Source of the DNA: an uncultured Lachnospiraceae bacterium | GTDB lineage: Bacteria > Bacillota > Clostridia > Lachnospirales > Lachnospiraceae | DNA length: 64,000 bases | NCBI GenBank assembly: GCA_910585545.1 | Contig: CAJUFN010000005.1 | Span: 28,954-92,953 of the forward strand | Reading direction: 5' to 3' | Shown: piece by piece, positions 59,272 through 63,076 of the stretch | Numbering within the stretch: the stretch's first letter is position 1 | How the letters are laid out: every line of letters begins with the position of its first letter | Made by a program: the position numbers and the translations under genes | Notes under the pieces: generated by a model | The model's database searches: none | Seen by the model: only the letters and a program-made list of their open reading frames with translations | What the model was told of the DNA's origin: nothing

Positions 59272-60771
59272 TTAGACTTCTTTCAGTCTTTCCTCTATCG
59301 CCTCTATCACTGTTTTCAATACTTTTATCCGTGCATAATATTTACAGTTTCCTTCCACAACGATCCACGGAGCATTTTTCGTAGACGTCCGAAGAATCAT
59401 CTCATTTACCGCCTCCTCGTAAAGCTCCCATTTTTCACGGTTTCTCCAGTCCTCGTCCGTGATCTTCCATTGTTTTTCCGGGTTTTCCTGTCTTGCCTTG
59501 AAGCGCCTCTCCTGCTCATTTTTGTCAATGTGCATCCAGAATTTAAGTACGATCGCTCCGGCATCCGTAAGGTCTCTCTCCATATCATTGATTTCTTTAT
59601 AAGCTCTTTGCCATTCTGCTTTCGTACAGAATCCCTCGATCCGCTCCACCATCACACGACCATACCAGGTCCGGTCAAAAATCGTCACATGTCCCGCTTT
59701 TGGCATATCTACCCAGAATCGCCACAGGTAATGATGCGCTTTCTCAATATCATTCGGAGATGCCGTCGGATGTACCACATACCCTCTCGGATCCATCTTT
59801 TCAGTCAGGCGTTTGATCGCACCGCCTTTTCCTCCCGCATCCCATCCTTCGAATCCAAGTACCACTGGAATTCTTCTTCGGTACAACTCTCCATGCAGTT
59901 TCTCTATCTTCTTTTGCAGCTTCGACAACTGTTCTTTATATTCTTCCTTTGTATAAGCAAGACCTAAGTCTGCTCTATTCAGAATAGATTCTCCAAGTAC
60001 TTTGTCTTTAGACAATTCTTTGATGCCCCGTTCTTCTGCGTTTCCTTCTTTACGTTTCTTGGCTTCCTCCACTCTTTCCTTGAGAACCTGACACACAATA
60101 TCATAAATCTTAGCCGTGGCAAATCTTCTGTCCGTCGCCTCTACAATATGCCATGGTGCGCAATCCATATCGGTACGGCTAAGCATTTCCTCATTGATTG
60201 CCTCATATTTCTTAAATTTCTTATTGCGCTTTAAATCTCCTTTACTCACACGCCATGCCGTCTCTTCTGACTCGAGGAGCTTATCAAAACGCTTTCTTTG
60301 TTCCTCTTTATCAATGGCAAGAAAAATCTTAATAATCACCATTCCATCCGCCGTCAACTGCTCTTCAAAAGAACAGATAGAAGCAAATTCTCTTTCCACC
60401 TTTTCTTTCTTCGTCTTCTTGTCGAAACGATCCACGAGCACCTTACGATACCAGCTGCTGTCATAGATTGCAATCCGTCCCTTCGCAGGCATCTTTGTCC
60501 AGAATCTCCACAAAAACGGATGCAGTTTTTCCTCTTGGGTCTCGGTCTTAACCGCATATACTTCAAATCCACGAGGATCTAAGGCCTTAATTAATTCTCC
60601 GATCTGGACTCCTTTTCCTGCAGCGCCATACCCCTCAAATGCAATCATAACCGGAATTCCAAGTTCCTTACATTCCCTCTGCAATGTTCCAAGTTTCGGC
60701 ACCAATAACTCCATCTTCTCTTTGTAGTTTTCTTTTTCTAACGTTTTCGCCAAATCCAGCTTTTCCAACAT
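59272..60771 (-). CDS. ppk2: Two-domain polyphosphate kinase 2 family protein (polyphosphate:AMP/NMP phosphotransferase type)
   Basis: It has two PPK2 repeats, each with a Walker A-like motif (FEGYGAAGKG and FEGWDAGGKGG) and WRFW lid motifs. The protein is 499 aa. Confidence 0.85.
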   Translation of the reverse strand: MLEKLDLAKTLEKENYKEKMELLVPKLGTLQRECKELGIPVMIAFEGYGAAGKGVQIGELIKALDPRGFEVYAVKTETQEEKLHPFLWRFWTKMPAKGRIAIYDSSWYRKVLVDRFDKKTKKEKVEREFASICSFEEQLTADGMVIIKIFLAIDKEEQRKRFDKLLESEETAWRVSKGDLKRNKKFKKYEAINEEMLSRTDMDCAPWHIVEATDRRFATAKIYDIVCQVLKERVEEAKKRKEGNAEERGIKELSKDKVLGESILNRADLGLAYTKEEYKEQLSKLQKKIEKLHGELYRRRIPVVLGFEGWDAGGKGGAIKRLTEKMDPRGYVVHPTASPNDIEKAHHYLWRFWVDMPKAGHVTIFDRTWYGRVMVERIEGFCTKAEWQRAYKEINDMERDLTDAGAIVLKFWMHIDKNEQERRFKARQENPEKQWKITDEDWRNREKWELYEEAVNEMILRTSTKNAPWIVVEGNCKYYARIKVLKTVIEAIEERLKEV

Positions 60772-60863
60772 AAAAATAACCTCCTCTCACACCTTTAGAA
60801 GATTCCCCGCGCAAATCTTCCTTAATCAAAAGTTTTTCTATGTCTATTATACACTATTTCTAA

Positions 60864-60888
60864 ATACAAAAAAATACCGGAATCCCTT
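60864..60888. repeat. Direct repeat copy 1 (att-like) at the left edge of the caspase islet
   Basis: The sequence atacaaaaaaataccggaatccctt is identical to 62802-62826 except for one extra A in the A-run of the second copy. Confidence 0.8.
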
Positions 60889-61030
60889 GATTTTATAGTG
60901 ATAAGGAAGTATAGAAACTAACTTATTATTAACGCTAGTAAACAGAGTGCAAAAAAGAATGTATGATTGATAGCTACCCATAAAACAGTATAAACAAACT
61001 GATACTAAAGTAGTTATCTTATGAATTAAG

Positions 61031-61080
61031 AAGCAAAATGGGTATATTACTAATAATGATATGTCCATTTTGCTTATTTT
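61031..61080 (+). terminator. Hairpin plus T-rich tract upstream of the caspase-like gene (insulating terminator or regulatory inverted repeat)
   Basis: The sequence aagcaaaatgg-(23 nt)-ccattttgctt forms a perfect 11-bp stem and is followed by atttta. Confidence 0.4.
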
Positions 61081-61101
61081 AATGATTTGTATTCTGAAAT
61101 A

Positions 61102-61130
61102 TAGGAAAACGCAGATTTCTATGTTATGAT
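61102..61130 (+). promoter_or_regulatory. Candidate extended -10 promoter of the caspase-like gene
   Basis: TGtTATGAT lies at 61122-61130 and a weak -35, TAGGAA, at 61102-61107. The RBS agggtagg lies before the ATG at 61179. Confidence 0.35.
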
Positions 61131-61178
61131 ACAAACAAAAATTTGCAAAGTAATAACGCTAAAGGGTAGGTAGTAAAT

Positions 61179-62699
61179 ATGGGAACAACAAAAGTATTAT
61201 TAGTTGGAGTGTGTGAATATTTAACAGTTAAGTGTCCTTCTTTGCCTATGTGCAAAAATGATTTGTATGCAATGAGGACGGCTCTCGTCAAAGGGTTAAA
61301 TATAAGCCCAAACAATATATATTTGTGTGGCGAAACGGGCATTGTAACAAAGAATGATTTTATTGCATCAATACACACTACACTTAAAGATATATCGGAA
61401 AATGATACATTCATTTTTTACTTTACTGGTCACGGTGGAAAAAATTGCTTAGTATTGAGTGATGGTTTGATTGAGTTACAAGATCTGCTTAATACAATAG
61501 GGCAAATACAAACTAAAAATAAGATTGCCATTATAGATAGTTGTCATTCGGGTGATTTTTCACTTGAAAACATTCCAACGATAGACATTGATGAAACGGT
61601 TGAACATTTTGCCGGACGCGGTTTTGCGGTTTTGGCTTCTTGTGGTGCTGAGCAATATTCTGGATTTAACGAAAATAAGGAAATTAGCTTATATACAAGT
61701 TTTGTATGTGATGCATTAACTGATCGTTTTTTGATTAGAAGAGGAAAGAAATCCTTGGAAACAATAAATGAAGCAATATTTCGTTTTGCAGAAGTTTCAA
61801 ATAAAAAAGGGAAGCATAATTTTCAGCAACCAATATTTCGCTCAAGCATAGGCGGAACTATATTTTTTGATGTTGAAGAATACAATCCCTACAAAATTGC
61901 AAAAGTATATGAAGAAACAGATAGCTATATTATTTATAATGTTGAACCAGTACATCATGCCGGTGTAAAAAGGTTATCTGCTAAAATAATTTTGCGTTTT
62001 CAAAGTTCGATGGAACAAATTGCTGAAATTGCAACAGAGATAAAAAATAAAGTACTTTATTATGACGTATACCAGAATGAAATTGCAGAAGCCCGTTATA
62101 AAGGGCGTGCAGCAAATATCATATGGTGCTATTTTGGTTATGATGAAGATGATATGGTTGATTGTAATTTTATTTGCCATTCTACATGGGTTGATGATAC
62201 ACAAGACAAAAAACATTGGTATCGTACATCAAAAAACACTATCGTTGCAAAGGGAGTTCACATTGATGTACACGGTTCATATGAGTCAATAAAGAACTTA
62301 AAAGATAACACCTTGGATAAGGATGAATTGATTCAAATTACAAGGGAATATACCGCTAATATTATATCAGTAGCCGAACAATACATCAAAATATTTAGAA
62401 AGTATCTCAATAACACTATAACCGAAGAAGAATTGATTGATAGCGTTGTTCCTCTTAATATTGAAATCTTAAAATGGTTTTTGAAACAAAACGCTTTACC
62501 AATACCTCCAAAGGAGTTGCATGATTGGGCACATATACACAAAAAACTTTCCTGTACAATACATGATTTTTCTCTTTTTTACGATAAGAAAAATTTAAAG
62601 ACATGGCAAAGCAAAAATAGAAAATGGTTATTACAAAACGCAATCGAGCAATATGAACTGGAATTAGAAGAATTAAAAGAAGCAGATAAGTTAATTTAA
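61179..62699 (+). CDS. Caspase-like (peptidase C14 / metacaspase-type) protein with an uncharacterised 275-aa C-terminal domain
   Basis: The ORF is 506 aa. It has KVLLVGVCEY (beta-1), FIFYFTGHGG (His85, codon 61431-61433), KIAIIDSCHSGDF (Cys122, codon 61542-61544), AVLASCGAEQ and QQPIF. Residues from about 235 to 506 have no motif I recognise. The sequence is AT-rich. Confidence 0.75.
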   Translation: MGTTKVLLVGVCEYLTVKCPSLPMCKNDLYAMRTALVKGLNISPNNIYLCGETGIVTKNDFIASIHTTLKDISENDTFIFYFTGHGGKNCLVLSDGLIELQDLLNTIGQIQTKNKIAIIDSCHSGDFSLENIPTIDIDETVEHFAGRGFAVLASCGAEQYSGFNENKEISLYTSFVCDALTDRFLIRRGKKSLETINEAIFRFAEVSNKKGKHNFQQPIFRSSIGGTIFFDVEEYNPYKIAKVYEETDSYIIYNVEPVHHAGVKRLSAKIILRFQSSMEQIAEIATEIKNKVLYYDVYQNEIAEARYKGRAANIIWCYFGYDEDDMVDCNFICHSTWVDDTQDKKHWYRTSKNTIVAKGVHIDVHGSYESIKNLKDNTLDKDELIQITREYTANIISVAEQYIKIFRKYLNNTITEEELIDSVVPLNIEILKWFLKQNALPIPPKELHDWAHIHKKLSCTIHDFSLFYDKKNLKTWQSKNRKWLLQNAIEQYELELEELKEADKLI

Positions 62700-62801
62700 G
62701 TATATTTTTTGTTACGCAATAGAACGCCATTTTTGAGAACCGACACATAAAAAGTTAATATATTATAATGCCCCATGCTTGCCCCATTTTCATTTTTTAC
62801 A

Positions 62802-62826
62802 TACAAAAAAAATACCGGAATCCCTT
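62802..62826. repeat. Direct repeat copy 2 (att-like); forms the 3' arm and U-tract of the tRNA-Leu terminator
   Basis: The sequence is atacaaaaaaaataccggaatccctt. See copy 1 at 60864-60888. Confidence 0.8.
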
Positions 62827-62846
62827 ATCTTATAAGGTTTCCGGTA
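62805..62846 (-). terminator. tRNA-Leu intrinsic terminator
   Basis: The minus strand reads UACCGGAA-ACCUUAUAAGAUAAGGG-AUUCCGGUA, a long hairpin, followed by U8. Confidence 0.75.
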
Positions 62847-62857
62847 TTTTGGTTGAA

Positions 62858-62942
62858 TGCGGAAGATGGGACTTGAACCCACACGATCGCATTGATCACA
62901 AGATCCTTAGTCTTGCTCGTCTGCCAGTTCCGACACTTCCGC
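62858..62942 (-). tRNA. tRNA-Leu, type II, anticodon AAG as read by eye (no encoded CCA)
   Basis: The acceptor stem is GCGGAAG/CUUCCGC and the D-loop GGAACUGGCAGAC is typical of Leu. The anticodon stem CAAGA/UCUUG carries the loop CUAAGGA, placing the anticodon at 62908-62906. The variable arm is GAUC-AAUGC-GAUC, the T-arm GUGGG-UUCAAGU-CCCAU, and the discriminator is A. Confidence 0.85.
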
Positions 62943-62959: not shown

Positions 62960-62988
62960 ATTCTACTATAAAGTTTTCTCTATGTCAA
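62960..62988 (-). promoter_or_regulatory. Near-consensus sigma-A promoter of tRNA-Leu
   Basis: The minus strand reads TTGACA, a 17-nt spacer, then TAGAAT, ending about 18 nt upstream of the mature tRNA 5' end. Confidence 0.7.
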
Positions 62989-63076
62989 TACTTTTTTTAA
63001 TTTTTTTCTATCTTTGCCGGAAGAATCTTTCTTCCAGCAAAGGTATATAAACTTACTTAAATCTATCAAACATGTA

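Follow-up and report, generated by a model that had tools for sequence, protein, structure and literature searches.

A caspase-fold gene in an attachment-site remnant beside tRNA-Leu of a gut Lachnospiraceae bacterium: a candidate one-protein defence system

A single-gene islet between ppk2 and tRNA-Leu

In an uncultured Lachnospiraceae bacterium, the gap between the genes for polyphosphate kinase 2 (ppk2) and tRNA-Leu(aag) is taken up by an AT-rich block with one credible open reading frame (ORF), which lies at 61179-62699 on the plus strand and encodes a protein of 506 aa. The DNA analysed, referred to as the window, is a stretch of 64,000 nucleotides (64 kb; GenBank assembly GCA_910585545.1, contig CAJUFN010000005.1, positions 28,954 to 92,953), and coordinates given without a contig name are those of the window. 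We think it probable that the block is a remnant in a phage attachment (att) site, that it holds a caspase cassette of the type found on integrative and conjugative elements (ICEs), and that this cassette encodes a cytoplasmic protein in which sensor and effector form a single chain. Judged by its predicted product, the gene is a good candidate for a one-protein system directed against phages or mobile elements. If this is true, caspase-type cell-suicide immunity would be contained in one polypeptide, with no partner gene, NTPase or signalling enzyme. Given that many candidate single-gene defence families are being reported, we present it as a promising candidate and not as a discovery.

The inserted DNA comprises 60889..62800 (1,912 bp, no strand assigned). 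It is low in GC and missing from empty-site contigs of the same species. An initial annotation, made from the letters of the window alone, had described a 1.9-kb AT-rich block with a single gene, and both the ORF list and the GC profile bear this out: GC content is 0.27-0.34 over 60750-62850 as compared to 0.41-0.50 on the ppk2 side, and the sign of the GC skew flips. The rplT side is likewise fairly AT-rich (0.30-0.38). As had also been stated, the insert contains neither an integrase nor a partner gene nor any other credible ORF, according to the ORF list.

The insert is bracketed by direct repeats. The left copy, which forms the att core on the ppk2 side, is found at 60864..60888 (ATACAAAAAAATACCGGAATCCCTT), exactly as initially annotated; the right copy, the att core on the tRNA side, is at 62801..62826 and thus starts at 62801 instead of the 62802 given originally. 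Compared to the left copy it has one extra A in its A-run, and both copies together can be written as ATACAAAAAAA(A)TACCGGAATCCCTT (25/26 bp). With the flanks included, the similarity extends over about 41-42 nt at 88%. A 21-nt core of the repeat, AAAAAAATACCGGAATCCCTT, occurs in exactly two copies in the 64 kb, where none is expected from 100 shuffles, and with only these two copies the possibility that the repeat is a generic terminator can be rejected.

The right copy coincides with the 3' arm (62813-62826) and the T-tract (62805-62812) of the intrinsic terminator of tRNA-Leu, a correspondence that had been noticed in the initial annotation and is confirmed by the hairpin at 62813-62846. 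The complete terminator spans 62805..62846 on the minus strand, its T-tract being an A-run on the plus strand, and the tRNA-Leu(aag) gene, which serves as landmark of the att site, follows at 62858..62942 (minus strand). On its minus strand the left copy, too, represents the terminator 3' arm with the T-tract, without the 5' arm. The host flank on this side is formed by ppk2 (59272..60771, minus strand), which codes for a two-domain enzyme. The upstream region of ppk2 with its -10 box GTGTATAAT starts right after the left repeat and is the same as in the empty site.

Three alleles at one site

An exact-protein look-up with ribosomal protein L20, which is encoded nearby, led to 17 contigs with an empty site (L091 and 10 similar ones, L092 and 3 more, L093, and L096). 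All have the gene order nrdD-...-infC-rpmI-rplT-[tRNA-Leu]-ppk2-HD-dnaG-sigA, belong to the same species, and are about 97% identical to the window at the nucleotide level on both flanks. In these contigs ppk2 begins 374 bp past rplT with no caspase gene in between, and the alignments of the left and right flanks share 29 bp, corresponding to the repeat. The site reads ...GGATTCCGGTATTTTTTTGTATTTAGAAATAGTGTATAATAGACA... in L091, L092, L093 and L096, or more fully ...ACCGGAAACCTTATAAGATAGAGGATTCCGGTATTTTTTTGTATTTAGAAATAGTGTATAATAGACA..., so that a single, intact terminator abuts the ppk2 upstream region. This is exactly the junction that was predicted to arise from joining the two repeat copies.

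The islet is present in all contigs read that encode the exact PPK2 protein of the window (23/23), and 125 index blocks share an identical, intact copy of the caspase. At the ppk2 loci of related species (≤80% aa identity), no caspase homologue was encountered (0/80).

A third allele carries an integrase. In contigs L094/L105 from a related organism, the gene for a tyrosine integrase of 289 aa ends right beside the same terminator, and the same integrase arrangement is seen in L095, where the flank is 97.5% identical to the window and a scaffold gap separates the tRNA from the terminator. The genes after the integrase code for PBECR, Abi_2, an ImmA plus HTH repressor-type pair, DUF3846, Sipho_Gp157 and AAA_24, and by this gene content we classify the element as a siphophage-like prophage. 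PBECR2/3 nuclease-like and Abi_2 genes directly follow the integrase (L105 6354-16037, also in L094 and L095); as the prophage carries such genes, the att site is a hotspot at which strains receive differing cargo of the defence type. One gut Lachnospiraceae species with three alleles at the same site (empty, prophage, islet) represents a natural genetic experiment.

Origin of the islet

Site-specific integration is indicated by the duplicated att core, the exact empty site, and the integrase-bearing element with a homologous arm at the same position. The initial annotation had arrived at a site-specific insertion with target duplication; the first part stands, while the duplication is better described as a phage att core and the islet as the remnant of an integrative element. 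We assign the 25/26-bp repeat as att core because a prophage resides at the same terminator and its integrase-proximal arm has a match in the islet. This arm remnant is located at 62751..62800 (about 48 bp, up to and including the integrase stop codon). The sequence 62751-62900, which covers arm and terminator, is 93-95% identical to L094/L095 (94.7% to L094 6371-6221) and contains what corresponds to the final ~5 codons of the integrase, which is all that the islet has of an integrase gene.

The interior of the islet, the remaining 1.86 kb, matches a different type of element. The region 60882-62752 shows 89% nucleotide identity to L001 and L112, with the same left boundary in L112 (60883). 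In L001 the cassette has three large serine recombinases on one side and, on the other, a Sigma70_r4 / HTH_16 gene pair, which we take to be similar to orf7/orf8 of Tn916. For the divergent copies L002-L005, homology is confined to 61096 to 62700, that is, to promoter and gene. As far as these alignments tell, the islet is a mosaic, integrase-less remnant in a phage att site and not a transposon, and a decayed or recombined integrative element appears a better description than a fresh insertion of a single gene. An insertion by a transposon or insertion sequence was considered and rejected, as there is no transposase ORF, inverted repeats pairing the ends of the insert are lacking, and the duplication of 25-26 bp corresponds to the phage att core. 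In IMG/VR, neither the arm sequence nor the integrase had a match.

Integrase-less, att-flanked remnants occur at tRNA loci as cis-mobilisable elements (CIMEs) and decayed prophages. The islet resembles these in having att-core repeats on either side of the cargo, an exact empty-site counterpart, and an integrase-bearing element that uses the same site. It differs from them in that the site is the terminator of the tRNA and not the tRNA 3' end, and in that its interior is nearly all ICE-type cassette, with only about 48 bp of phage left.

The protease domain

Residues 1-232 (61179..61874, plus strand) form the protease domain. In the translation, the hallmarks of a caspase are found in their proper order, as had been reported initially: KVLLVGVCEY (residues 5-14), FYFTGHGG with H85, IAIIDSCHSGDF with C122, and QQP (216-218). 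Pfam Peptidase_C14 (PF00656) matches residues 5-204 with E=3.7e-12 and 46.9 bits, well above the cutoff of 21.4. A full-length AlphaFold2 model, based on a 51-sequence alignment, has a mean predicted local distance difference test score (pLDDT) of 88.3 and a predicted template modelling (TM) score of 0.77. The top Foldseek matches of this model are MALT1, caspases 1/3/6/7, CED-3, a metacaspase and legumain (E about 1e-8), with target-normalised TM scores of 0.6-0.76 for the caspase-fold matches. On the strength of the model we are confident that the N-terminal domain is a caspase-fold protease.

In phmmer alignments, FTGH85GG corresponds to SHG and DSC122HSG to QACRG of caspase-6, and the N-terminus including C25-K-N-D28 is aligned to 'GCIND' (CxxD) of the yeast metacaspase Yca1. 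Conservation was assessed in 179 full-length members, a set that includes C-terminal parts only about 23% identical to that of the window: H85, D28 and D120 are present in all 179, C122 in 178, and C25 in 152. Modelling and conservation of the dyad thus agree with the initial description as a caspase-like protease; what has to be refined is the type. We equate C25, D28 and D120 with C92, D95 and D211 of TbMCA2, and take the acidic residues of CxxD and DxC(H)SG as the S1-pocket signature of metacaspases. With such an acidic S1 pocket the enzyme is metacaspase/orthocaspase-like and not an Asp-specific, caspase-like one, and from the pocket residues cleavage after Arg/Lys is therefore predicted (basic P1 specificity). 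The protein should be cytoplasmic, because it has no signal peptide, strand 1 starting already at residue 4.

The protein is annotated solely as 'caspase family protein', and the best NCBIfam match of the protease domain, 'caspase, EACC1-associated type' (NF047832), reaches 60.3 bits where the cutoff is 140.

The C-terminal module

The second part of the protein, residues 233-506 plus stop (61875..62699, plus strand), is referred to as the C-module. Modelled alone (pLDDT 91.3), it consists of an α/β subdomain (about residues 245-375) followed by a bundle of long helices (about 381-505). The initial annotation had recognised nothing in these ~275 aa, and in our searches, too, no housekeeping or structural family came up. 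Pfam, NCBIfam and PADLOC gave no match, either with the single sequence or with 20 diverse members; sequence and profile searches of the PDB returned coiled-coil noise only; and Foldseek against PDB and BFVD found nothing better than E=0.06, again coiled-coil or helical-bundle noise.

An exhaustive phmmer search with the C-module alone retrieved 318 cluster representatives at E≤1e-3. Most of these proteins have the same caspase architecture of about 505-520 aa. Others carry the C-module behind a different N-terminal head, which may be TIR_2 (P0183, P0211, P0219, P0259), DUF4365 (P0216, P0233, P0267; these match the argonaute-associated 'Aga_REase' profiles of PADLOC), Mrr_cat (P0251, P0256, P0266) or an LmuA-like nuclease (P0264), and several heads belong to no assigned family. 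We take the DUF4365 heads to be equivalent to DREN, the restriction-endonuclease-like nuclease of short-argonaute systems. Across head types, the C-modules can be aligned from end to end with almost no gaps, K264, D325 and W337 being invariant over all fusion types and R265 and Y368 nearly so. In this family the C-module stays constant and the effector domain at the N-terminus is swapped.

Immune proteins of the single-chain kind are typically built from a constant module that carries one of several toxic heads, and all of the head types named above require self-association for activity elsewhere. By analogy, the same requirement may apply to the C-module fusions. We tentatively propose, at somewhat less than even confidence, that the C-module is a new NTPase-free immune sensor which self-associates upon a cue from a phage or mobile element and so activates the fused, oligomerisation-dependent killer domain. 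On this reading the proteins, which have at least five types of head (metacaspase, TIR, DUF4365, Mrr-like, LmuA-like nuclease), would form a new family of bacterial immune receptors made of a single chain, and ICEs, plasmids and prophage remnants would have spread it among gut Firmicutes. The C-module would be a tractable new sensor fold that is modular across protease, NADase-type and nuclease heads. We found no description of the C-module family in the literature; the library searched is incomplete, so that novelty is not proven.

Homologues and their genomic context

For 42 loci with full-length homologues, neighbouring ORFs within 3.5 kb on either side were clustered. In the clade of the window (caspase identity ≥38%, 26 loci), there is no conserved neighbour. 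Together with the presence of the C-module on TIR, DUF4365, Mrr-like and LmuA-like heads, this strengthens a proposal of the initial annotation, that the gene may be a self-contained module of sensor plus protease, which we continue to word conditionally. Serine recombinases recur near the caspase at 6 loci of this clade, and relaxases and sigma-like genes at 3 loci each. Individual settings include a PIN7 gene (L002), a PHP/AAA_23 protein with two large unknown proteins (L097), MobC with a relaxase (L100), and, in Paenibacillus, a KAP-NTPase beside rlmH (L101). To judge by such neighbours, the settings of close relatives resemble ICEs, mobilisable elements or defence islands.

A full-length homologue with 38% identity over 97% coverage is encoded, unannotated, on a 107-kb plasmid of Enterococcus faecalis (L110; LR961926.1 33926-35413), about 5 kb from vanZ/vanY of the vanA glycopeptide-resistance cluster. 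Within Clostridia and Bacilli, ICE-like and mobilisable elements as well as plasmids carry the caspase cassette around, and the copy on the vanA plasmid together with the ICE-like copies suggests that the gene travels with clinically relevant mobile DNA. C-module fusions without a caspase have similar surroundings: one is found in an ICE- or plasmid-like region (L107), another in an integrase island beside smpB/tmRNA that also has PCTIR-TIR and HNH genes (L108), and a further one adjoins a HEPN gene on a Paenibacillus plasmid.

Many of the metagenomic contigs with close homologues are only 1.7-2.3 kb long. As an example, L006 (1901 bp) starts within the hairpin upstream of the gene (equivalent to 61065 of the window) and ends 200 bp into ICE-backbone sequence. 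The short contigs fit assembly breaks around a cassette that is present in several contexts within one sample.

A more distant clade is represented by 13 loci, with 27-35% identity to the protein of the window and 30-99% among each other (38-60% for most non-redundant pairs). Several additional genes accompany its caspases. A trio of Ser/Thr-kinase-like, vWA and PP2C-like phosphatase genes occurs near those of L124, L139 and L144 (e.g. L144 7043-10389), and we presume from sequence features that this trio is TerY-P-like. In L137, L140, L143 and L160, the caspase gene is followed by the gene for a helicase-like protein of about 1,500 aa.

Proposed mechanism and points against it

The explanation that we favour covers the locus and the gene. 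A temperate element, siphophage-like and equipped with a tyrosine integrase, uses the tRNA-Leu(aag) terminator as its attB site, and in this lineage the site holds a 1.9-kb, integrase-less remnant between two copies of the att core. The interior of the remnant is a caspase cassette made up of promoter and gene, with about 48 bp of the integrase-proximal arm of the phage left. In the encoded protein, the C-module would keep the protease inactive before a trigger is met. The trigger, which may be a protein of a phage or foreign element or a small molecule, would lead to self-association driven by the C-module, and the induced proximity would activate the N-terminal metacaspase-like protease. This would cleave, probably after Arg/Lys, and degrade proteins of the cell, the invader, or both, so that the infected cell is arrested (abortive infection) or a competing element is excluded. 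What the analysis shows is the insertion with its empty site and mosaic make-up, the caspase fold with conserved catalytic and S1-type residues, the fusion of the C-module to other effector heads, the lack of conserved partner genes in the clade of the window, and the location of homologues on mobile elements. The defence role, the sensing of a trigger by the C-module, and the activation by oligomerisation are what we infer from these comparisons.

Several observations weigh against this explanation. The first group concerns the assertion that one gene is sufficient. Caspase genes of the distant clade are preceded by two genes on the same strand, one for an HTH_26 protein (~170-190 aa) and one for a protein of ~115 aa, and in most loci the latter gene ends 8-36 bp before the caspase start. 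The pair is found in L134, L136-L147, L149 and L160 (e.g. L137 4068-4577 and 4588-4965, L147 3651-4226 and 4373-4720). The HTH_26 protein is of the Cro/C1 type, and the ~115-aa protein has a conserved motif 'YxVxEYDEPNHEA'. The two could be a regulator and an antidote. The pair is absent from the clade of the window, but its presence in the distant clade means that 'single gene' is true for the window's clade and perhaps not for the family as a whole; a regulator could be missing at the window locus or be supplied in trans.

The second group concerns the protein. PADLOC, in a version (v2.0.0) older than the description of type IV Thoeris, gives a weak match to the protease domain (E=2.7e-7) and no named defence system matches, and a recognisable binding fold was not found in the C-module. 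In addition, the one member of the 179 without the catalytic Cys is P0002, the closest ICE-borne copy (L001 8001-9521; 88% identical; representing a cluster of 247 members), which reads IIDSWHSGG and is thus C122W. As this replacement is found in an abundant close homologue, some copies may be inactive, and P0002 is possibly an inactivated or decoy copy.

The third group concerns the origin of the islet. None of 50,697 phage genomes contains a full-length homologue, for which reason the cassette was probably not original phage cargo; an origin of the gene as prophage cargo (a 'moron') is correspondingly weakened. Replacement of the phage interior by the cassette is a conjecture. The 10-kb flank in L105 stops short of the far end of the prophage, and the left junction of the islet lacks a detailed explanation. 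The exact order of the events that built the islet is one that we infer.

Alternative explanations

As the main alternative, the protein could be an orphan effector that is activated by a signal made elsewhere. The C-module would then be the receptor for a second messenger, in the manner of SAVED, CARF, SLOG, STING or the C-domain of the type IV Thoeris caspase, and the signal would come from a TIR or cyclase encoded at another locus, or be a nucleotide made by the phage. In signalling systems, too, receptor domains are joined to effectors of the TIR, nuclease and protease types, and K264, D325, W337, R265 and Y368 of the α/β subdomain could line a pocket for a small molecule. However, no TIR, CD-NTase or cyclase gene stands beside the caspase in the window, L001, L002, L097, L100 or L101, no gene for a signal-producing enzyme is among the conserved neighbours of the 42 loci, and Foldseek detected no similarity to a solved receptor fold (E>0.06). 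Also, the C-module is itself fused directly to TIR, an arrangement more in keeping with a primary sensor than with the reception of a TIR signal. We consider the orphan effector unlikely.

An explanation of about the same low probability is that the gene serves the mobile element and not the cell: it would exclude or kill recipients of a competing element, or kill cells that lose the carrier, and the islet would be a stranded copy with no current role. Close homologues are indeed located in ICE-like regulatory or recombination modules, beside relaxases and on a plasmid, the replacement C122W in P0002 suggests that some copies decay, and a precedent is outlined in PMC12847820 with SpbK of ICEBs1, a single TIR protein which is borne by an ICE and makes infection by SPβ abortive. 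The copy in the window, in contrast, is intact and identical in the 125 index blocks; this integrity and the retention of catalytic residues in 178/179 relatives argue for ongoing selection on the gene. An antitoxin-like partner as required for addiction is seen neither in the islet nor in the neighbour clusters. The mechanism moreover overlaps with the one proposed above, from which it differs in the beneficiary alone.

It is quite improbable that the islet is still mobile as an integrase-less, CIME-like element which the integrase of the cognate prophage moves in trans through the two att cores. In favour of mobility, neither of the 25/26-bp cores is damaged, the arm next to the integrase has kept 48 bp, and an integrase-bearing prophage resides at the site in the same species (L095, 97.5% flank identity). 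However, there is one arm only, of about 48 bp, and at the opposite inner end homology to the cassette known from ICEs extends as far as the core, so that binding sites of the arm type have probably been lost. An identical unit was found at no other att site, and the context is the same in 23/23 contigs read.

An ordinary cellular protease, i.e. a regulatory or developmental metacaspase (for instance stress- or sporulation-linked) in a variable region, would be in line with the many bacterial orthocaspases that have no known immune role and with an annotation that says no more than 'caspase family protein', but is highly improbable given the presence/absence polymorphism at strain level with an exact empty site, the foreign, AT-rich DNA with 89% identity to copies in unrelated mobile contexts, the lack of the gene at 80 related-species loci, and a C-module that is shared with TIR and restriction-endonuclease-like proteins.

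Comparison with known systems

With respect to function, the closest counterparts of the protein that we interpret as a single-chain sensor-effector are the type IV Thoeris caspase and PCaspase; with respect to architecture they are SpbK, CapRel-type fusions and Avs. The caspase of type IV Thoeris is a promiscuous, Arg-specific executioner (Rousset et al., 10.1101/2024.10.24.620036), and the work has been published in Science 2025 according to the reference list of PMC13069673. The same preprint, 10.1101/2024.10.24.620036, cites PCaspase as promiscuous and probably specific for Arg. The islet protein would be expected to act in a similar way, cleaving many proteins after a basic residue and stopping the infected cell. 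Type IV Thoeris differs, by its description, in being a two-gene system where a TIR partner makes N7-cADPR, whereas the islet gene has no adjacent TIR gene in the loci examined and its C-module is itself fused to TIR or nuclease in sister proteins.

PCaspase / SAVED-CHAT of type III-B CRISPR and Craspase of type III-E are likewise immune effectors with a caspase fold. Activation of these CRISPR-linked proteases depends on CRISPR signalling or on complexes guided by RNA, and on upstream proteolysis, while CRISPR/Cas, SAVED or TPR-CHAT components are found neither in the islet protein nor at the loci examined. Immune-type caspases with sensor domains also occur in protease-effector modules (EACC1, Pepco, MBL, α/β-hydrolase, gasdermin; Evans et al., PMC12642450; Kaur et al., PMC7159879). 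No EACC1, Pepco, gasdermin or MBL gene stands beside the islet caspase or is conserved in its clade. Unlike the proteases of these modules, that of the islet is a swappable effector head and not the activator of a neighbour.

SpbK, fused toxin-antitoxins of the CapRel-SJ46 type and Avs are single-chain sensor-effectors of abortive infection. As in the islet protein, a toxic effector and a part for sensing or autoinhibition are joined in the same chain, the genes are borne by mobile elements or prophages, and effector heads are exchanged on a constant sensor. Avs proteins have a STAND NTPase; scans with Pfam, NCBIfam and PADLOC and the model reveal no NTPase domain in the islet protein. CapRel has a RelA/SpoT-like toxin, which the islet protein does not, and the fold of the constant module differs (no PDB match). 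On its domain content, the islet protein represents a candidate family of one-protein defence systems whose sensor module is uncharacterised, lacking the defining features of type IV Thoeris and of EACC1, gasdermin, CRISPR-linked and STAND systems.

Minor features of the locus

Several features may relate to transcription of the caspase gene. A long AT-rich hairpin followed by a T-run, which resembles a terminator, is found upstream of the gene (61031..61075, plus strand) and is conserved in the cassette copies of L001 and L112; possibly it shields the gene from read-through. The sole Rfam match of this hairpin is a microRNA at chance level (E=0.2, 23 bits versus a gathering score of 100), and the Rfam scan of the islet detected nothing except the tRNA. 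A 14-codon hydrophobic ORF (MGILLIMICPFCLF, 61039-61083) overlaps the hairpin and is probably not coding, because L001 has ATA in place of the start codon. A putative extended -10 element, TGTTATGAT, can be read at 61122..61130 (plus strand), where L001 has TGCTAAAAT; it may be a promoter element of the caspase gene, which a consensus promoter scan omitted because there is no good -35. The point from which the most divergent cassette copies (L002-L005) are homologous, 61096, lies a short way upstream of it. At the other end, the terminator of tRNA-Leu is suitably placed to stop the convergent caspase transcript as well, and could do so because TTTT follows the hairpin on the plus strand, which would give it a bidirectional role.

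Upstream of ppk2, a stretch of 20 nt (60828-60847, AAAAGTTTTTCTATGTCTAT) is 80% identical to the promoter region of tRNA-Leu (62970-62989), and a GCGCGG motif resembling a tRNA 5' end comes after it on the ppk2 side. The stretch may be the trace of an old tandem copy of tRNA-Leu. In relatives there are often two tRNA-Leu(aag) genes, and we considered whether the insert is the remnant of a tandem duplication; this was rejected, as sequence of the 60828-60847 type is already found in the empty-site allele, and for the same reason the similarity is unrelated to the insertion. In related Lachnospiraceae (L011, L014, L020, L021, L024, L025, L052, L067 and others), tRNA-Leu(aag) is located just upstream of ppk2, often on the divergent strand, sometimes in two tandem copies, and usually with rplT not nearby. 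The neighbourhood of tRNA and ppk2 is thus conserved in related Lachnospiraceae, with orientation and surroundings rearranged.

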